A DNA stretch of 6,020 nt, from positions 1 through 6,020 of the IMG/VR virus record IMGVR_UViG_2778261349_000007. One strand, given 5' to 3'. Below are positions 1-6,020 of the stretch, piece by piece. Position 1 is the first letter of the stretch. The number at the start of each line of letters is the position of its first letter. The notes beneath the pieces are model-generated. The model made no database searches. It saw only the letters and a list, made by a program, of their open reading frames with translations, and was not told where the DNA came from. A program made the translations under genes and the position numbers. This stretch comes from a virus (taxonomy: Duplodnaviria; Heunggongvirae; Uroviricota; Caudoviricetes).

Positions 1-1410
1 ATGAAACTGGCACCGAACGTAAAACGATTACCGAAAGACAAATACACCGATGCGATTATTTTTGCGGGTATTGATGCTCATTCATTCGCAGAGCATTACA
101 TCATTGCACAGGCCAAAAAAGCAGGCGATCCAGTCCCTCCCGTTTATCTGGGGCGTTATCAGTTAAGCGAACTGGATAACCTCCAGATTGTTGATGATGG
201 GCGATACAGGGCGACGGTGATACGCGCCGGAAATATTGAAGAGCCGCAGCTGTTAACCATCGCCACGAAACTGGCGATCGCCGGAGTCCAGGAGGCGCGG
301 CTACTTTCTGAAAATTTCGAATTGCTGGAGGAATGGAGCGACCAGCTTCCACGGCTTAGGGAGGCATGGGAACGCGGGGAAAGCCTGGTCATGAAAAAAA
401 TCCCCCAGCGAAAAACCACGCTACCGATGAGCGTTGGATCTACCGGATACGACACACAGCTTGATTACGTGGTAAAGGGGATTATTCCGGCATCGTCGCT
501 TTGCAGCATATACGGGGCGAGCGGTTCCTATAAATCATTCCTTGCCGGATCGTGGGCGTGTCACGTTTCCACGGGCCGCCAGTGGGGAGGCCGCAGGGTG
601 GCGCATGGCGCTGTTCTCTATGTGGTTGGTGAAGGCGGTATCGGCGTTCCGCGTCGTGTAAAAGCCTGGGAGGTTGTGCACGGTGAGCAGGTGAAAAATC
701 TGTATCTGGTAAACCGTCCCATCTTTCCGGCTGTCTCGCTTGATGTTGATGAACTGGTTATTGCTGCCAGTCAGGTGGAGAGGGAAACGGGTAAACCTGT
801 TCGCATGATTATTCTGGATACGCTGGCGCGTTGCTTTGGTGGGAATGATGAAAATGATTCCCGTGATATGGGGGCGTTTATCCGTGGTTGTGACGAACTG
901 AAACGGCGCACAGGGGCCACGGTGCTGGTGGTTCACCATTCCGGCAAGGATGAGACGAAAGGCGCGCGCGGTTCCAGTGCATTTCGTGCTTCGCTGGATG
1001 CTGAATACCGGATACGCAGAGAGGACGCAGGCAGCGAAGCGCTGGTTATCTCATGCACCAAAATGAAGGACGCGGAGGAACTCAAAGAAGCCGCATATGA
1101 CTTACGCGTGGTGGAGCTTTTTACCGACGCTGACGGGGAGTTAATCACGTCGCTGGTGGTGGTGGATAAGCCGCGCCCTCCCGTTGAACTGGAGCGCATC
1201 GAGGAGGCAGGGAACAAGACGGAGAATCACGCCGCGCTATGGCAGTGCATCAGAACACGAACAGCACACGGGGAGGCGTGCACTATCGCCCTTCTCCGCG
1301 ACGATATGAAAAAGCTGGGGTATGAGATGAAGCACTTCCGGCGCTGGCTGTACAAGCTGGAAAATGATGGCGTAATCGTTATTGATGGTGATGACGTGCG
1401 CCCGCTGTAA
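1..1410 (+). CDS. Replication initiator/helicase, RecA-like P-loop NTPase (RepA/AAA_25-like), 469 aa
   Basis: Long ORF with ATG at nt 1 and stop at 1408-1410. Walker A-like GASGSYKS (about nt 514-537), Walker B-like MIILDTLARCF (about nt 805-837), and VLVVHHSGKDE motif typical of RepA/DnaB-type replicative helicases of plasmids, phages and satellites. An N-terminal ~150 aa domain could be the origin-binding part. Iteron origin lies immediately downstream. Confidence 0.75.
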   Translation: MKLAPNVKRLPKDKYTDAIIFAGIDAHSFAEHYIIAQAKKAGDPVPPVYLGRYQLSELDNLQIVDDGRYRATVIRAGNIEEPQLLTIATKLAIAGVQEARLLSENFELLEEWSDQLPRLREAWERGESLVMKKIPQRKTTLPMSVGSTGYDTQLDYVVKGIIPASSLCSIYGASGSYKSFLAGSWACHVSTGRQWGGRRVAHGAVLYVVGEGGIGVPRRVKAWEVVHGEQVKNLYLVNRPIFPAVSLDVDELVIAASQVERETGKPVRMIILDTLARCFGGNDENDSRDMGAFIRGCDELKRRTGATVLVVHHSGKDETKGARGSSAFRASLDAEYRIRREDAGSEALVISCTKMKDAEELKEAAYDLRVVELFTDADGELITSLVVVDKPRPPVELERIEEAGNKTENHAALWQCIRTRTAHGEACTIALLRDDMKKLGYEMKHFRRWLYKLENDGVIVIDGDDVRPL

Positions 1411-1613
1411 AAAGTGGGGAGCAAAAGTGGGGAGCAGTGGGGAATTTAACAAAATTGAAACATAATTACCCACTTTCCCACCTGTATATACCCAAAAAAG
1501 TGGGGAGTAAAAAACATATTGAAAAACATAACGTTAGAATCACAAAAAAAAGAGGTGGGGAGACGGTGGGTAATTTCAAAAAGTGGGGAGCAAAAGTGGG
1601 GAGTGGTGGGGAA
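1411..1613. repeat. Iteron-type replication origin: about 9 direct and 2 inverted copies of AGTGGGGAG-like repeats flanking an AT-rich core
   Basis: Direct copies at 1413-1421, 1425-1433, 1435-1443, 1499-1507, 1553-1561, 1563-1571, 1582-1590, 1594-1602, 1605-1613 (AGTGGGGAG / GGTGGGGAG / GGTGGGTAA variants, 10-12 bp spacing within clusters). Inverted copies inside 1465-1480 (aattacccactttcccacc). AT-rich segment 1445-1550 between clusters. Sits directly 3-prime of the helicase gene. Confidence 0.7.
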
Positions 1614-1864
1614 TGAACAGAAAAACCAGAGATAAGACAGCGCCAAAATATAAAGCGTTAGACATGACAGAGCACGCTTTAAAGGTGGCAATCAGAACGA
1701 TAGACCGCCACGCGGGGGAAGGATACGCGAAAGAACATCCCGACCTGATAAGCGCATTCATGACCACAGCAGCGGCAAACTTTGCCACGCTGACAGAACG
1801 TGAGATTGCCGAAGCGGAACAGGTAACAACCATCAACGTTAAAACCGGAGAGGTGGAATCATGA
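1613..1864 (+). CDS. Hypothetical small protein (83 aa from ATG 1613; the ORF track starts at GTG 1583)
   Basis: ORF in frame from MNRKTRDK...; stop TGA 1862-1864 overlaps the ATG of the next gene (ATGA overlap at 1861-1864), suggesting translational coupling with ssb. Start overlaps the last iterons. No recognisable motifs. Confidence 0.5.
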   Translation: MNRKTRDKTAPKYKALDMTEHALKVAIRTIDRHAGEGYAKEHPDLISAFMTTAAANFATLTEREIAEAEQVTTINVKTGEVES

Positions 1865-2283
1865 CAGCACAGATAGCCGCTTACGGGCGGCTGGTGGACG
1901 ACCCGCAGGTAAAACAGACCAGCAAGGGCACACCGATGACGCTGGTTCGTATGGCGGTATCGCTGCCATGCAGCCAGGCACAGGACGGACAGGCGACGTT
2001 ATGGCTGTCCGTCATCGCATTTGGCAAGCAGGCCGACTTCCTGGCTAAACATCAAAAAGGCGACGTTGCCAGCGTATCCGGCACGATGCAGGTAAGCCAG
2101 TGGACAGGCCAGAACGGCGAAACGCGGCAGGGCTGGCAGGTTATCGCAGACAGCGTAATCAGTGCGAGAACGGCGCGACCGGGCGGCAAAAAAGGCCAGC
2201 AGGGGCAGGCTACTGACGCACTGAACAGGGCAAAACAACAGGCGGGTAACGATGATCCGTACGGGGATAACATACCGTTTTAA
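1861..2283 (+). CDS. ssb: Single-stranded DNA-binding protein (SSB-like OB-fold), 140 aa
   Basis: Translation aligns by eye to the E. coli SSB OB-fold (GRLVDDPQV..., WLSVIAFGKQADFLAKHQKGDVASVSGTMQVSQWTGQNGETRQ...) followed by a Gly/Gln-rich linker and an acidic C-terminal tip ...NDDPYGDNIPF resembling the canonical DDDIPF tail. Followed by a rho-independent terminator. Confidence 0.8.
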   Translation: MTAQIAAYGRLVDDPQVKQTSKGTPMTLVRMAVSLPCSQAQDGQATLWLSVIAFGKQADFLAKHQKGDVASVSGTMQVSQWTGQNGETRQGWQVIADSVISARTARPGGKKGQQGQATDALNRAKQQAGNDDPYGDNIPF

Positions 2284-2298
2284 GCAACGAGTGACAGA

Positions 2299-2321
2299 AG
2301 CCGGAGCAATCCGGCTTTTTT
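2299..2321 (+). terminator. Rho-independent terminator after ssb
   Basis: Stem agccgga (2299-2305), loop gcaa, stem tccggct (2310-2316), then a T run 2316-2321. Confidence 0.7.
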
Positions 2322-2370
2322 ACGGGTCCTCCTGGCGGGGTGGGCCTGAACACGGGGCGGAGGGGCGCGG
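2322..2370 (+). repeat. Degenerate cos-like repeat (cosQ-like acgggtcct retained, cosN core altered)
   Basis: acgggtcctcctggcggggtgggcctgaacacggggcggaggggcgcgg parallels the 4764-4812 cos copy (acgggtcctttccggcatatggacccgttacggggcggcgacctcgcgg), but the 12-nt GGGCGGCGACCT core is replaced by GGGCGGAGGGGCG. The preceding terminator hairpin is also near-identical to the one at 4741-4763. Confidence 0.5.
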
Positions 2371-2502
2371 AAAAAAGCGCATTTTTGTGGTTTTATCGTC
2401 ATCATCATCATGAGCGTAATTTATTGTTTTTAATTGTTTTGATGCAAAAAAGATGATGATTGTGGTTAATTTTCGTTCGACATCTTTGCAGGCAGATAAA
2501 AA

Positions 2503-2535
2503 AGCCCGATAAGGTCAGAGGAAACCTATCGGGCT
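2503..2535. other. Intergenic hairpin (9-bp perfect stem agcccgata / tatcgggct, 15-nt loop) flanked by an A run upstream and T runs downstream
   Basis: Stem arms 2503-2511 and 2527-2535. aaaaaa at 2497-2502 and tttt at 2535-2538 make it terminator-like on either strand. Could be a bidirectional terminator or the 3-prime end of a small RNA. Confidence 0.35.
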
Positions 2536-2616
2536 TTTGCATATGAGGTTTTTTTGGTGCACTGACACACATGATCGGGATAATCATTTCATAATTTGCA
2601 ACACAACTCAACATCA

Positions 2617-2644
2617 TTGCACAAAATGCAATCATGATTATAAT
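2617..2644 (+). promoter_or_regulatory. Candidate sigma70 promoter for the capsid operon (TTGCAC -35 at 2617-2622, 16-bp spacer, TATAAT -10 at 2639-2644)
   Basis: Near-consensus hexamers with 16-bp spacing, about 55 bp upstream of the first capsid-operon ATG (2701). Overlapped by palindromes (ATGATTATAATCAT 2634-2647 and the 32-bp palindrome 2642-2673). Sequence-only prediction. Confidence 0.45.
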
Positions 2645-2673
2645 CATAACTGGATGAACATCCAGTTATGATT
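2642..2673. promoter_or_regulatory. 32-bp perfect palindrome (15-bp arms AATCATAACTGGATG / CATCCAGTTATGATT, 2-bp spacer): operator or leader hairpin/terminator
   Basis: Left arm 2642-2656, right arm 2659-2673, exact reverse complements. Overlaps the candidate -10 and predicted +1. Followed by tttttt (2672-2677) and then the RBS AAGAGGA (2683-2689) of the first capsid-operon gene. Confidence 0.6.
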
Positions 2674-2700
2674 TTTTAAGTCAAAGAGGAATTTCTGACT

Positions 2701-2907
2701 ATGGCAGAAGAGAAAAAAGGCGGGGTGACCGTGTACATAAGCCCCGACATCGTGGAGGCGCTCAAGGAACGCCACCAGCAGAACGTAAAAGCAGGCATCG
2801 CAGCAGGACTTGATCCGCTGGCGATGGTTGAGCCGTCAACAGGCTGGCAGGTACGCGCCTATTTACGCGCGGCGCTGGGCATGAATCAGACGCATGGAGG
2901 TGAATAA
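2701..2907 (+). CDS. Hypothetical small protein (68 aa) immediately upstream of, and coupled to, the major capsid gene; possible scaffold-like or assembly factor
   Basis: RBS AAGAGGA at 2683-2689. Stop TAA 2905-2907 overlaps ATG 2907 of the capsid gene (TAATG). No recognisable motif; the function is inferred only from position. Confidence 0.55.
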   Translation: MAEEKKGGVTVYISPDIVEALKERHQQNVKAGIAAGLDPLAMVEPSTGWQVRAYLRAALGMNQTHGGE

Positions 2908-3962
2908 TGGCAGGCAAAGCAACGGCACTTAACACTAACCAGCTTTTCGCGTACCTGAATCGCGGGGATATTGCGGAATTTAAATTCAGTCCGCTGTTTA
3001 CCACGCTGTTTTTCCCGAACGTGGCGACATTCAACACCCAAAACATCATGCTGGACACCCTGGACATTGAAGAGGTTACGATGTCGGCGTTTTGTTCGCC
3101 TATGGTGGGTAGTCAGGTCCAGCGCGATAAAGGGTACGAAACCAGCACGATTAAACCTGGATACATGAAGCCGAAGCACGAAATCGATCCAACGAAAACC
3201 ATCATGCGCATGGCCGGAGAAGATCCGGCACAGCTTAACGACCCTACCTATCGCCGTATGCGCCTGATTACTGGCAATATGCGCCGCCAGGTAAACGCCA
3301 TAAAAGCGCGCGTGGAATGGCTGGCGGTAAATGCGGTAACGACCGGAAAAAACATCATTGAGGGCGAAGGCATAGAGCGCTATGAAATCGACTGGAAGAT
3401 ACCGGAAAAAAACATCATAGAGCAGGCCAAAGGCCGTAAATGGTCAGAGCAGGACAAAGAAACTCACGATCCAATCTATGATATTGAGCTTTATGCGGAT
3501 CAGGGCAATTGCCCCGCAAACGTCATGATTATGGGCGCTGAGGTATGGCGCACGTTACGCAGCTTTAAAAAATTCCGCGAACTGTACGATCTTTCCCGTG
3601 GTTCAGAATCCGCCGCAGAACTGGCCTGCAAAAACCTGGGCGAAGTAGTGAGCTTTAAAGGCTATCTGGGCGATATTGCCCTTATCGTCTATTCCGGCAA
3701 ATACGCCGACAGCGACGGCACAGAAAAATATTTCCTTGAGCCTGATTTGCTGGTCCTGGGTAACACCAACAATAAAGGGCTGGTGGCCTATGGTGCGATT
3801 ATGGATCAGGAAGCTGTAAGAACAGGCGCAACGCAAAACATGTACTACCCGAAAAACTGGATTGAGGACGGCGATCCGGCGATTGAGTACGTGCAGACGC
3901 ACAGCGCACCGCAGCCGGTTCCGGCAGATATTCGCAAATTTGTTACCGTCAAAATTGGTTAA
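2907..3962 (+). CDS. Major capsid protein, lambda gpE-like (HK97-fold), 351 aa
   Basis: Translation matches remembered lambda gpE along its length: FKFSPLFTTLFF (lambda FKFDPLFLRLFF), PGYMKPKHE (PGYVKPKHE), EDPAQLNDPTYRRMRLITGNMR (EDPQNLADPAYRRRRIIMQNMR), RGSES...LG.VVSFKGYLGDIALIVYSGKY, VLGNT..GL.AYG, YPKNW..GDPA, SAP. Length is close to gpE. Confidence 0.9.
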   Translation: MAGKATALNTNQLFAYLNRGDIAEFKFSPLFTTLFFPNVATFNTQNIMLDTLDIEEVTMSAFCSPMVGSQVQRDKGYETSTIKPGYMKPKHEIDPTKTIMRMAGEDPAQLNDPTYRRMRLITGNMRRQVNAIKARVEWLAVNAVTTGKNIIEGEGIERYEIDWKIPEKNIIEQAKGRKWSEQDKETHDPIYDIELYADQGNCPANVMIMGAEVWRTLRSFKKFRELYDLSRGSESAAELACKNLGEVVSFKGYLGDIALIVYSGKYADSDGTEKYFLEPDLLVLGNTNNKGLVAYGAIMDQEAVRTGATQNMYYPKNWIEDGDPAIEYVQTHSAPQPVPADIRKFVTVKIG

Positions 3963-3973
3963 CGGGGGATTCT

Positions 3974-4309
3974 ATGGACACTCCATACATTGAGTTATTT
4001 GCTGGCAGTCAGCAGGTATCAACGACGCTGGTACATTTTGCCGCTGATGCTGGCGTTATTCAGGAATTTACCCCGCTGATGCTGGCGGACAATGGTGAGT
4101 TTAAGCCGTGGGATGGTCAGGAATCTGGCAAGGCTGTTTATCTGACCTCGTACCCCGTGGACACGTCAAAGCAGAAATCAGCACAGTGTTACAAGACGGG
4201 GATATTTAATATCGCCGCCGTAAACTGGCCTGAGAGCGCCGACACTGACGCGAAAAAATGCGCCGCCTTTGCGGGTTCTGGCGTATCCGTTCAGCCGCTG
4301 GCGCGATAA
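3974..4309 (+). CDS. Head decoration protein, lambda gpD-like, 111 aa
   Basis: TPLMLADNGEFKPWDG, KTGIF...WPESAD..AKK.AAFAGSGVS align by eye to lambda gpD (TPLMLDTSSRKLVAWDG ... KSGTF...[21 protein letters not shown]). Size matches gpD. RBS GGGGGA upstream. Gene order E-then-D is reversed relative to lambda. Confidence 0.8.
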   Translation: MDTPYIELFAGSQQVSTTLVHFAADAGVIQEFTPLMLADNGEFKPWDGQESGKAVYLTSYPVDTSKQKSAQCYKTGIFNIAAVNWPESADTDAKKCAAFAGSGVSVQPLAR

Positions 4310-4321
4310 GCAGGGGGAACG

Positions 4322-4735
4322 ATGGCTACGAATGAAAGCATCATGGCGCTACCGCTGGCGAGTAAATTTAAAGCAGAAGCGCGGGCAATGGCTGACAGAG
4401 GTTTATCAACCTACGAGGCCGTATATCAACTCAACAGACTGGAAGAGCAGGACAAACCGCGCGCTGATGCGATTATGGCACTTGATGAATCTGGCGACTA
4501 TCAGCCGCTGCTACGTGCAATGGCAAACGTGCCTTGTATCGATGTTGGTACGGCTAAAAGCATCCTTAGCATGACCATAGAGCAGGAACGCCAGAAGGTT
4601 GCACCAGAGCTTACCGCAGCCTTTGAAAACTTTATGGACATGCACAGCCCGCAAGCCGTATCAGCAGGCATGGCATACGATGGCAGAAACCCGGGCGATG
4701 ACGGCGACATCGATCGCATACTGAAAACCATCTGA
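4322..4735 (+). CDS. Hypothetical protein (137 aa), last gene of the capsid operon; possible packaging/assembly accessory
   Basis: Good RBS (GGGGGA about 4312-4317). Ends 5 bp before a strong terminator. No motif recognised; no convincing by-eye match to lambda FI, FII or W. Confidence 0.65.
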   Translation: MATNESIMALPLASKFKAEARAMADRGLSTYEAVYQLNRLEEQDKPRADAIMALDESGDYQPLLRAMANVPCIDVGTAKSILSMTIEQERQKVAPELTAAFENFMDMHSPQAVSAGMAYDGRNPGDDGDIDRILKTI

Positions 4736-4740
4736 GACAG

Positions 4741-4763
4741 GCCGGAGAAATCCGGCTTTTTTT
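4741..4763 (+). terminator. Rho-independent terminator after the capsid operon
   Basis: Stem gccgga (4741-4746), loop gaaa, stem tccggc (4751-4756), T7 run 4757-4763. Near-identical to the terminator at 2299-2321. Confidence 0.7.
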
Positions 4764-4830
4764 ACGGGTCCTTTCCGGCATATGGACCCGTTACGGGGCG
4801 GCGACCTCGCGGTTTTTCGCTATTTATGAG
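4764..4830 (+). other. Lambda-type cos site, + orientation: cosQ-like (acgggtcctttccgg), cosN 12-nt core GGGCGGCGACCT (4796-4807), and the start of cosB
   Basis: gttacg-GGGCGGCGACCT-cgcggtttttcgctatttatga matches the remembered lambda cohesive-end region (GTTACG / GGGCGGCGACCT / CGCGGGTTTTCGCTATTTATGA), and ACGGGTCCTTTCCGG matches the lambda right-end cosQ region. Downstream (4831-4940) it diverges from lambda cosB, with no CCGTTCTTCTTC R3-like motif and a GGGTGGTGGTGGTGG run instead. It lies upstream of a Nu1-like gene, as in lambda. Confidence 0.75.
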
Positions 4831-4940
4831 CTTTTTCAGGGTGGTGGTGGTGGTTTTGTTGTTTGCTCTATCTTTATGAATAAAAAGGGAAAGATGCAAG
4901 CAATACACCAACCTGAAGCAGTAATTAAGTTGGTGTATTA

Positions 4941-5483
4941 ATGAAATCGCACCTGATGAACAAAAAAAACATGGCTAAAAGCTGCCGTGTAAGTGCGACA
5001 GCGTTCGACAAGTGGGGAGTAACTCCCGTTGAGCGTAAAGGCCGTGAGGCGTTTTATGATGTTGCCAGCGTGATAGACAATAGGGTTAACAATGCAATTA
5101 GCCAGCTTACAAACGGCAAAGGTGAGATTGATGATGATGAACTTTTACGAGTCAGGATCAGATTACTGACAGCACAGGCAGAGGCGCAGGAACTTAAAAA
5201 CGAGCGCGATCGCGGTGACGTGATTGATACAGAGTTTTGCATGTACGCGCTTTCAAAACTGGCGAGTCAGATTTCATCAATCATGGACAGCCTCCCGCTT
5301 ACTATGCAAAGGAACTTCCCACAGATTACCCCCGCCATGCTGGATAGGCTTAAAAGGGAAGTGGTTAAAGCCTGTAATGCCAGCGCAAAAGCTGCCGACA
5401 ACCTCCCGCAGATACTGGTTGCTTACCTGAATGAAACTACCGGAAACGTGCCGAAGAAGTTGCTACAGAAGAAAGGCGAGTAA
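4941..5483 (+). CDS. Terminase small subunit, lambda Nu1-like, 180 aa (start alternatively at ATG 4956)
   Basis: C-terminal two thirds align closely to remembered lambda Nu1 (LLTAQAEAQELKNERDRGDVIDTEFCMYALSKLASQISSIMDSLPLTMQRNFPQI vs LTRAQADAQELKNARDSAEVVETAFCTFVLSRIAGEIASILDGLPLSVQRRFPEL). The N-terminal DNA-binding region is more diverged (MNKKNMAKSCRVSATAFDKW... vs MEVNKKQLADIFGASIRTIQNW...). No clear SD upstream of either candidate start. Confidence 0.85.
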   Translation: MKSHLMNKKNMAKSCRVSATAFDKWGVTPVERKGREAFYDVASVIDNRVNNAISQLTNGKGEIDDDELLRVRIRLLTAQAEAQELKNERDRGDVIDTEFCMYALSKLASQISSIMDSLPLTMQRNFPQITPAMLDRLKREVVKACNASAKAADNLPQILVAYLNETTGNVPKKLLQKKGE

Positions 5484-5510
5484 CAGACGCGCAATTATTG
5501 AACAAAAATG

Positions 5511-5573
5511 AGAAAGGATCTGATAATGGCATTTTCTGGCTAAAATGCCTCGTGTCAGATCCTTTCTTTTTTT
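5511..5573 (+). terminator. Nested hairpin with T run downstream of the small-terminase gene (likely intrinsic terminator)
   Basis: Outer 13-bp perfect stem agaaaggatctga (5511-5523) / tcagatcctttct (5555-5567). Inner stem ggcatttt (5528-5535) / aaaatgcc (5542-5549) with loop ctggct. Followed by ttttttt (5567-5573). Confidence 0.6.
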
Positions 5574-5584
5574 AATGTTTTCAT

Positions 5585-5705
5585 TGTTAAACAATCTGTT
5601 ATAGAGAAGAAGAACGGATCTGACTTTTGCCAGAAAATTTTCATAAACAGATAAAATCCGCGAGGTCGCCGCCCCGTAACGGGCCATAATTCCAGGAAGG
5701 ACCCG
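5585..5705 (-). other. Second, complete lambda-like cos site in inverted orientation (cosQ-like, cosN, lambda-like cosB motifs on the minus strand)
   Basis: The minus strand reads cgggtccttcctggaattatggcccgttacg-GGGCGGCGACCT-cgcggattttatctgtTTATGAAAATTTTCtggcaaaagtcagatCCGTTCTTCTTCtct. cosN core is at 5663-5674 (forward aggtcgccgccc). TTTATGAAAATTTTC (forward 5633-5647) and CCGTTCTTCTTC (forward 5606-5617) match the remembered lambda cosB left-end sequence, including the R3-like element. It is convergent with the 4764-4830 cos, and the two flank the Nu1-like gene. Confidence 0.75.
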
Positions 5706-5738
5706 ACGACACCAGACTATCAGAACGATGGGGGCACA

Positions 5739-6020
5739 ATGACAGAAGCCGAACTACTGCGATTAATCCGTCGCGTTGCCGAAATCAGCCAGCAGGCTGA
5801 CGAACAGGCCACGCAGCCGGACAGCGTGACCGCCGAAAATTATGCGCGTGTGGTTGCTGAGGTGATGCGCCGTGACGGTATTGAGCTTAACGGCGTGGAT
5901 ATGCGCGACATACGGATCCGCGTTCTGGAAATGCTGGCCTACAATCGCCGCGTTGAACTGTATCGGGAGAAAGAAAAAATTACGTACCACTGGAAGAAGC
6001 CGGAGCGGTTACGGCGATAA
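5739..6020 (+). CDS. Hypothetical protein (93 aa)
   Basis: ORF with GGGGG SD-like run (5730-5734) 4 nt before ATG 5739; stop TAA at 6018-6020 (window end). No recognisable motif. Confidence 0.55.
   Translation: MTEAELLRLIRRVAEISQQADEQATQPDSVTAENYARVVAEVMRRDGIELNGVDMRDIRIRVLEMLAYNRRVELYREKEKITYHWKKPERLRR

Follow-up and report, generated by a model that had tools for sequence, protein, structure and literature searches.

Described islands with two cos sites and the locus analysed

A well-studied relative of the locus analysed here is EcCICFT073, a phage-inducible chromosomal island (PICI) of Escherichia coli. Two packaging sites, cos1 and cos2, have been published for this island (Fillol-Salom 2018, PMC6092414; Fillol-Salom 2019, PMC6739421). 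Either site allows phage lambda or phi80 to transduce a plasmid. Transfer of the island itself requires cos1, and lambda-mediated transfer rises upon deletion of cos2 (PMC6092414; PMC6739421). A heterocomplex of the island protein RppA and the small terminase, TerS, recognises the cosB region of cos1 only. Accordingly, RppA enhances only cos1 (PMC6092414; PMC6739421). Rpp proteins are thought to be without the C-terminal region that binds TerL (Murialdo & Feiss 2022, PMC9026076). A further island, EcCIIHE3034, has been listed as a TerS-encoding E. coli PICI (PMC6092414); no description of its cos sites was found in the published text searched. Here, we analyse a 6,020 nt stretch of viral DNA, positions 1 to 6,020 of IMG/VR record IMGVR_UViG_2778261349_000007. 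This whole stretch is referred to as the window. It contains two cos sites either side of a terS gene.

The words 'inverted' and 'orientation' are never used in the main text of PMC6092414 or PMC6739421. Murialdo & Feiss analysed cos1 alone, and the terms 'cos2', 'inverted' and 'flip' are never used (PMC9026076). In the CFT073 genome (L002), cosN is found at positions 7559-7570 (+) and 8298-8309 (-), with rppA in between. In the 2019 supplement, cos2 is printed as the reverse complement of the genomic sequence. Hence, the two sites of EcCICFT073 are convergent, like those of the window. An initial annotation of the window, made from its letters alone, knew of no described element with such opposed sites. 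This claim does not hold: EcCICFT073 has the same geometry, and EcCIIHE3034 has a near-identical TerS and cos pair. Since the arrangement is already published, this is not a new kind of element. By sequence, we assign it to the known cos1/cos2 module, in a catalogued but uncharacterised sub-family that encodes TerS. Three properties appear to be unreported: variation of the cos2 class independently of TerS, exchange of the DNA between the sites as a cassette, and natural inversion of that cassette. No prior report of any of these was found in the openly searchable literature, subscription-only papers being outside the search.

The window and EcCICFT073 belong to the same island family. They share a chromosomal site by phoQ, gene order, an identical cosN, cosQ-side arms that are 93-100% identical, and two convergent cos sites around one small gene. 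The small gene differs; EcCICFT073 encodes the 144-aa RppA where the window encodes a 180-aa Nu1-type TerS. RppA requires the helper TerS as a partner, whereas the TerS of the window retains the C-terminal region. Both cosB regions are also unrelated in sequence between the two islands. In EcCIIHE3034, 171 of 181 TerS residues are identical, the cosB of cos1 is the same, and the convergent cosN sequences have the same 867 nt spacing. Nucleotide identity to the window is 91.6% over 4.4 kb. In contrast, EcCIIHE3034 is integrated at cspD-clpS, has a primase instead of a RepA-type helicase gene and carries a cos2 cosB of the CATGTCGG class, not AGATCC.

The island is common. Of 5,426 complete E. 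coli genomes, 2,199 match part of the window, and in 389 the match covers 80% or more of it. In the closest (L001, 98.3% identity), the window corresponds to the right half of an island of ~11 kb, located between roxA and phoQ, with a tyrosine integrase at the left end. Judged on this genome, the element has the features of a PICI: a terminal integrase, a specific site, a length within ~10-15 kb and the absence of genes for tails or lysis. The window itself provides a replication module with iterons, and two cos sites with lambda-type cosQ and cosN but non-lambda cosB. We identify it as the replication, capsid-like and packaging half of a PICI of the EcCICFT073/EcCIIHE3034 family.

Two convergent cos sites resemble that of lambda

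The cosN sequence GGGCGGCGACCT, identical to the 12 nt cohesive end of lambda, occurs exactly at positions 4796-4807 (+; cos1) and 5663-5674 (-; cos2). These are the only two such sites in the window, even if up to 2 mismatches are allowed. The chance expectation for one given 12-mer, on both strands of 6 kb, is ~7e-4. Both copies are enclosed by an inverted repeat with arms of 76 nt, 80% complementary, at 4765-4840 (+) and 5630-5705 (-). The arms have a perfect 26-nt core, CCCGTTACGGGGCGGCGACCTCGCGG, in common. Each arm comprises a cosQ, a cosN and a cosN-proximal segment. The cosQ of cos1 (GGGTCCTTTCCGG, 4766-4778, +) was placed by the lambda cosQ register and that of cos2 (GGGTCCTTCCTGG, 5692-5704, -) by alignment to lambda. 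The cosQ-side 60 nt of the right arm are 100% identical to cos2 of EcCICFT073.

When aligned with authentic lambda ends, both arms have a GGGTCCT cosQ core in register, 30 nt upstream of cosN. The cosN-proximal segment, +13 to +42, is 87% identical to lambda at both sites. Hence, cos1 and cos2 each have the cosQ core, 12-nt cosN and conserved cosN-proximal segment of a lambda-type cos. The cosB order R3-I1-R2-R1, with R2 inverted, is found at cos2 and only partly at cos1. Both sites look intact and convergent, flanking the Nu1-like gene at 4941-5483. In these respects, the initial annotation, which had noted identical cosN copies on opposite strands, cosQ-like flanks and a small-terminase gene between them, read the locus correctly. 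The likeness to lambda has limits. The boxes downstream of cos1 are unrelated, cos2 leads into the 3' end of a converging gene rather than a Nu1 gene, and the island has two opposed sites per genome.

cos1 has a private cosB next to a full-length terS

The cosB of cos1 (cosB1) consists of three boxes with the forward-reverse-forward arrows of a lambda-type cosB. The box sequences differ from those of lambda, and a recognisable I1 is absent. Box a (GGTGGTGGTGGTGG, 4840-4853, +) is found +45-58 from cosN, at the R3-equivalent position; this is the position proposed for R3-PICI by Murialdo & Feiss (PMC9026076). It is conserved but length-variable among TerS-type islands. Box b (ATACACCAAC, 4903-4912, +; +108-117) is inverted with respect to boxes a and c, and is invariant in 24 of the 24 TerS-type left arms listed. 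Box c (GTTGGTGTAT, 4929-4938, +; +134-143) falls just before the terS start codon, and reads GTGGGGATAT in islands encoding a 184-aa TerS variant. The GGTGGTGG, CACCAAC and GTTGGTG boxes are candidate motifs for binding by the N-terminal domain of TerS. A non-lambda cosB followed by the island's own small-terminase gene is as the initial annotation had described.

Separately, box a is a G-run/(GGT)n tract of variable sequence. The forms GGGTGGTGGTGGTGG, GGGGGGTGGTGGTGG and GGGGGGGGGGGTGGG, and a further one 3 nt shorter, were seen on comparing the window with L019, L024 and L038. A slippage-prone tract inside the presumed TerS site might alter the efficiency of packaging.

The gene between the sites (terS, 4941-5483, +) encodes a 180-aa protein that we identify, from Pfam, PHROG and alignments, as a small terminase of the Nu1 type, full-length but diverged in its N-terminal domain. 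The Pfam match (PF07471) scores 83.4 bits against a cut-off of 30, and spans residues 62-148 only. PHROG 57, terminase small subunit, matches residues 1-172 (E 8e-52). Identity is 34% to lambda Nu1 (E 8e-33; TerS residues 6-166 against Nu1 3-180) and 41% to Nu1 of PhiR5_1 (E 6e-41). The N-terminus aligns weakly with the DNA-binding domain of Nu1, the winged helix-turn-helix that binds R boxes. Even so, TerS is colinear with phage Nu1 over its whole length, including the C-terminal TerL-binding region. We considered whether TerS might be an Rpp protein and rejected this. There was no detectable similarity to RppA by BLASTP (E 1.2) and no hit to solved structure chains, RppC included. Furthermore, TerS has 180 residues, compared with 135-153 for RppA, RppB and RppC, and aligns to the very end of Nu1. 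Because the TerL-binding region is kept, unlike in Rpp proteins, the island TerS probably replaces, rather than hijacks, the helper TerS.

A natural chimera supports the pairing of TerS with its adjacent cosB. In L008 (4311-4895, -), TerS is of the PhiR5_1 Nu1 type up to residue 115 and of the island type from residue 116 to 194. The cos at 5070, adjoining this chimeric terS, has the matching phage cosB of the CATGT type. The other cos of L008 carries an AGATCC cosB. Hence, comparison of the sequences shows that the presumed DNA-binding end of TerS and the neighbouring cosB were swapped together, as expected if TerS reads the cosB beside it.

cos2 has a phage-type cosB of a non-lambda class

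On the minus strand, cos2 is followed by boxes in the lambda order and orientation, with near-lambda spacing. R3 (CAGATCCGTTCTTCTTC, 5606-5622) lies at +53-69; for comparison, the legend to Fig. 2 of Murialdo & Feiss gives 50-65 for lambda R3 (PMC9026076). An I1-like segment, resembling a site for IHF, follows at +73-89 (ATAACAGATTGTTTAAC, 5586-5602), the resemblance being only to the lambda sequence ATAACTTAATGTTTTTA between R3 and R2. Next are R2 (AAAGAAAGGATCTGAC, 5554-5569; +106-121), inverted with respect to R3 and R1, and R1 (CAGATCCTTTCTCAT, 5508-5522; +153-167; inverted-repeat families I2 and I3). The motifs TTTATGAAAATTTTC (5633-5647) and CCGTTCTTCTTC (5606-5617), which the initial annotation had considered lambda-like, are both present.

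In alignment to lambda, the R boxes of cos2 read CAGATCC(G/T)TTCT, compared with CGTTTCC(G/T)TTCT. Given AGATCC in place of GTTTCC, we rejected lambda as the cognate reader; lambda itself is probably not the phage to which cos2 is matched. AGATCC boxes do occur beside a cognate Nu1 gene in prophage SerU-LTIIb (L004), and likewise in ~42 prophages of E. coli, that of strain M8 (L102 2500-2740) among them. The cosN region of SerU-LTIIb and M8, GGGGGTCTGGGGACGC, differs from that of lambda. Hence, SerU-LTIIb is only partly correct as a model for cos2: the boxes match and the cosN region does not. A better fit is L098, a 38-kb lambda-like phage contig in IMG/VR, with the identical lambda cosN and AGATCC boxes in the order endolysin, Rz, cos, Nu1. 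The R1 box of cos2 matches those of both L098 and SerU-LTIIb. Since the AGATCC cosB and its Nu1 occur with two cosN regions, cosN and cosB modules reassort among lambda-like phages. Because the same boxes adjoin Nu1 in prophages and, together with lambda cosN, in L098, we class cos2 as a true phage-type cos; its specificity class is a real one, but not lambda's.

It had been proposed that the two sites are read by different small terminases, cos1 by the island's own and cos2 by that of a lambda-like helper. The idea of two specificities fits the restriction of RppA to cos1, the joint swap in L008 and the boxes of L098. As a reader of cos2, lambda itself is unlikely.

Islands exchange the cassette between their cosN cores

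We surveyed 80 IMG/VR loci, anchored on the 137-aa gene upstream of cos1. A convergent cosN pair was found in 51 of the 80. A scan of species-representative genomes with the 137-aa protein gave no confirmed loci. In the window, the cassette (cosB1, terS and the cosB of cos2) occupies positions 4808-5662. Four types were recognised by length and content. The TerS cassette is 867 nt long and encodes a TerS of 180 or 184 aa, the RppA cassette has 739 nt (144 aa), and an RppB-like cassette has 759 nt (146 aa). The remaining type, of ~524 nt, is gene-less, with two cosB regions and the 3' remnant of an rpp gene. It is present in 47 complete E. coli genomes. Islands with this cassette would rely entirely on proteins of the helper, or of a co-resident island, for recognition. 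In the examples L059 and L060 (3477-4001), one cosB is of the GGTTGTTGT type and the other of the ATGTCCGG type.

Comparison of the window with CFT073 illustrates the exchange. The cosQ-side arms are near-identical, as described above, and similarity ends at about +43 of either cos, the DNA in between being unrelated. Hence, the DNA from one cosN core to the other acts as a cassette open to exchange. The two ends of the cassette are also not locked together. With one and the same TerS and cos1, at least three phage-type classes of cosB are found at cos2. The first is AGATCC, as in the window. The second is CATGTCGGTAC / AGAAACGACAC / CATGTCGTTTC. The third, CGTGTCGGTACC / GGTCAGACAT / CATGTCGGGCC, hardly differs from the cosB of the helper prophage that CFT073 itself carries. 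The sequences compared thus show that the class of cosB at cos2 varies independently of TerS and cosB1. Single genomes can contain two islands of the EcCICFT073 family at different sites, as in 2015C-3905 (L001 and L009) and GF4 (NZ_CP172217.1; H138 and H153). Such co-residence would make cassette exchange possible.

The cassette is found in both orientations

Orientations were counted in complete E. coli genomes, using chimeric junction queries (cos1 flank joined to cos2-type cosB) alongside native junctions, with at least 80% of the query covered. For the ~524-nt cassette, whole-cassette queries with 300-nt flanks were used. The TerS cassette was native in 495 genomes and flipped in 4. Equivalent numbers for the rppA cassette were 69 and 31. 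The ~524-nt cassette was oriented as in L059 in 3 genomes and as in L060 in 44. Hence, comparison of natural genomes shows orientation polymorphism for three cassette types.

Individual loci agree with the counts. In L007, terS is on the strand opposite the capsid genes, and the locus is colinear with an in silico flipped window over 1,722 nt (92.8%). L010 and L011 both carry the identical RppA protein (WP_000565609.1), encoded on the opposite strand from the native arrangement. The two islands of strain GF4 have the ~524-nt cassette in opposite orientations. Among islands of this type, two pairs with near-identical backbones have opposite orientations: L064 and L067 (1 difference in 1,500 positions) and L059 and L060 (7 in 1,500). 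Conversely, L059 and L064 share an orientation, yet differ at 33 of 1,500. Orientation is thus mixed with respect to phylogeny.

The flips were mapped using elements with distinguishable arms. In flipped elements, the left cosQ remains of the cos1 type and the right one of the cos2 type. Hence, the crossover lies between -9 and +17, a segment that includes cosN. Each informative crossover maps inside the 26-nt core, of which cosN is part. Some elements have two cos2-type arms, and these occur in both orientations. Their existence is evidence for gene conversion between the arms.

The number of events is smaller than the number of genomes. H54 is of the same lineage as L007, their flip being common by descent. 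For rppA, the 15 flipped genomes listed have one junction allele, so the 31 flips may be largely clonal. We estimate at least 4 or 5 independent orientation changes among the sequences compared, not dozens. A single clonal event was rejected as the source of all flips, given the three cassette types involved and the opposite orientations of nearest backbone neighbours among the ~524-nt type. We also rejected a site-specific invertase. The cassettes encode TerS only, RppA only, or nothing, and the genes nearby are conserved hypotheticals, none of them matching a recombinase.

Two routes fit the flips equally well. Inversion could occur by homologous recombination in the 26-nt core, using RecA or a Red/Erf-type recombinase of the helper, and possibly stimulated by terminase cutting. 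Alternatively, terminase could cut both sites and the cassette be re-ligated. The ends of the excised cassette would carry the same 12-nt overhang, so re-ligation either way is possible. A bolder version has terminase acting as a cut-and-paste nuclease. In this scheme, double cutting at cosN would free the cassette for re-ligation in flipped form, or into a co-resident island or helper, so shuffling packaging specificity. We regard this as a speculative and rather unlikely extension. Homologous recombination, either ordinary or by a phage recombinase, explains the same polymorphism.

The closest parallel for such a polymorphism is with segments inverted by a recombinase, namely the Hin, Gin and Cin invertons and the shufflons, in which a short segment between inverted repeats also occurs in both orientations in nature. 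The differences are considerable. There is no invertase gene in or beside the cassette, the repeats are the sites of terminase recognition and cutting, and flipping switches no obvious promoter or coding sequence.

A proposed role for the two sites, and the alternatives

Taking these results together, we think it likely that cos1 and cos2 bound a packaging cassette of dual specificity. In this model, cos1 is used by the island TerS together with the helper TerL, and cos2 by the terminase of a matching helper. Briefly, a lambda-like helper would provide TerL (gpA), proheads and tails, as is established in the literature for this family. The N-terminal domain of the island TerS would bind cosB1 and its conserved C-terminus would recruit the helper TerL. 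Cutting at cosN1 would then start rightward packaging with no need for the helper TerS, unlike in Rpp islands. A helper TerS of AGATCC specificity would start leftward packaging at cos2, without any island protein. The island presumably replicates as a circle or concatemer; if so, whole island units could be packaged in either direction. With a non-matching helper, cos2 would at best be useless and could compete with cos1, which fits the published rise in transfer upon deletion of cos2. Cutting of both sites on one molecule would yield an unpackageable fragment of ~0.87 kb, and this too would explain the gain from cos2 deletion with non-matching helpers. As a by-product, or possibly a further function, the inverted cosQ-cosN arms would make the cassette exchangeable and invertible. 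The initial annotation had also raised packaging of flanking host DNA; nothing was found in support, the one related oddity being a co-oriented prophage cos 37.2 kb from cos1 in CFT073.

Several points weigh against a dual-specificity cassette. The published data give cos2 no benefit: in EcCICFT073, transfer by lambda and phi80 was improved by deleting it (PMC6092414; PMC6739421). EcCIIHE3034 was not mobilised by resident prophages (PMC6092414). For the window, binding of TerS to cosB1, interaction of TerS with TerL, and cutting at either site are all steps that we infer, and a promoter scan identified no convincing terS promoter. The RppB-like cassettes carry an island-type, non-phage cosB (GGTTGTTGT/ACAACAACC) at cos2. 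Hence, the equation of cos2 with a helper-type cos is not universal. Finally, five TerS islands (L066, L070, L075, L027 and L062) have cos1 and no cos2, the 93-aa gene to the right beginning 12 nt after the terS stop codon. A few further surveyed TerS islands are also without a detectable cos2. Since several TerS islands do without it, cos2 is accessory or dispensable.

Islands without cos2, the gain in lambda and phi80 transfer upon its deletion, and persistence of the gene-less ~524-nt cassette in 47 complete genomes would all be expected if cos2 were a functionless leftover of low cost. It would then be a decayed, captured phage cos-Nu1 region or a recombination scar; only cos1 would matter, and flips would be neutral. 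We consider this improbable. In most islands, the cosQ core of cos2 is intact, its cosN exact and its three R boxes correctly spaced. Moreover, the presence of at least three coherent phage-type cosB classes beside the same TerS argues for repeated replacement by functional modules, not decay. In EcCICFT073, cos2 alone supports transduction of a plasmid. Those same cosB classes match real phages and prophages, including the helper of CFT073, and the family is known for interfering with helper packaging at the TerS step. Both observations would suit a cos2 that is mainly a decoy, soaking up helper terminase on amplified island DNA; pointing inward, such a site would still package island DNA. 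However, the published interference by EcCICFT073 maps to rppA alone, and deletion of rppA restores plaques. The decoy also largely overlaps with the dual-specificity cassette, because both require recognition of cos2 by helper terminase. As the main function of cos2, we rate interference as very unlikely.

Lastly, the convergent pair might have arisen by misassembly, or might mark where two neighbouring elements meet, as the initial annotation had allowed. This is so improbable that it can be set aside. The same structure is present in 495 complete genomes for the TerS cassette, and in 69 for the rppA cassette. Furthermore, both flanks are those of one island, with conserved genes on each side, and both sites of EcCICFT073 have been experimentally deleted and cloned.

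The dual-specificity cassette has several implications. The comparative findings make directly testable a question raised in the literature, namely why these islands have two cos sites. Independent variation of phage-type cosB at cos2 suggests matching to different natural helpers. The complete TerS of this sub-family predicts independence from helper TerS, unlike in Rpp islands. Cassette exchange and inversion would give satellites a simple route to reshuffle packaging specificity. Because the islands are found in a large share of E. coli genomes, including many pathogenic lineages, their mode of packaging affects the spread of the genes they carry.

Comparison with staphylococcal islands

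Aspects of this organisation have counterparts among the Staphylococcus aureus pathogenicity islands (SaPIs). In pac-type SaPIs (SaPI1 and SaPIbov1), the satellite's own TerS redirects the helper TerL to satellite DNA. In cos SaPIs, such as SaPIbov5, the satellite carries a helper-type cos. SaPIbov4 is cited as also having two putative cos sites. The proteins and hosts are unrelated to those described here, and TerS-encoding SaPIs package by a headful mechanism, not from cos. We know of no report of convergent cos sites, or of a flipping cassette, in a SaPI.

Other features of the island

The left part of the window encodes the replication module. A 469-aa protein (1-1410) matches the AAA_25 / RepA-family helicases (E 8.7e-44). 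Directly 3' of this gene are six GTGGGGAG iterons (1414-1603), in two clusters that flank an AT-rich spacer. These iterons are probably the replication origin of the island. Further genes of the window are those for SSB, for a capsid protein like lambda E and for a D-like decoration protein. The capsid block is separated from the SSB gene by an intergenic region of 416 nt (2284-2700), with a terminator-like hairpin at its start and AT-rich ATGAT repeats. An Rfam scan of the window, this region included, gave no hits.

Conserved backbone genes are found on either side of the cassette. Upstream of cos1 is the 137-aa gene used to anchor the survey (4322-4735, +; PHROG 1999, E 1.5e-63). Its product also weakly matches PHROG 53, the head maturation protease, in the C-terminal part of that family (E 1.4e-8), a region resembling the lambda C/Nu3 scaffold. 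From this match, the island carries E-like, D-like and possibly Nu3-like genes. Full-size capsids have been reported for packaging of EcCICFT073, despite the capsid-like genes of the island. A terminator-like hairpin (4740-4763, +), with an 8-bp stem, 5 GC pairs and then TTTTTTT, closes the capsid-gene block before the cosQ of cos1. Right of cos2 is the 93-aa gene (5739-6020, +; PHROG 1561, E 3e-55). Its place is unchanged in CFT073, in IHE3034 and in every locus surveyed.

In the CFT073 genome, cos1 of the island (7559) and the cos of helper prophage 4 (44745) are co-oriented and 37.2 kb apart. Because this distance is near the lower size limit for lambda-type packaging, in situ packaging of the phoPQ-icd segment is conceivable.

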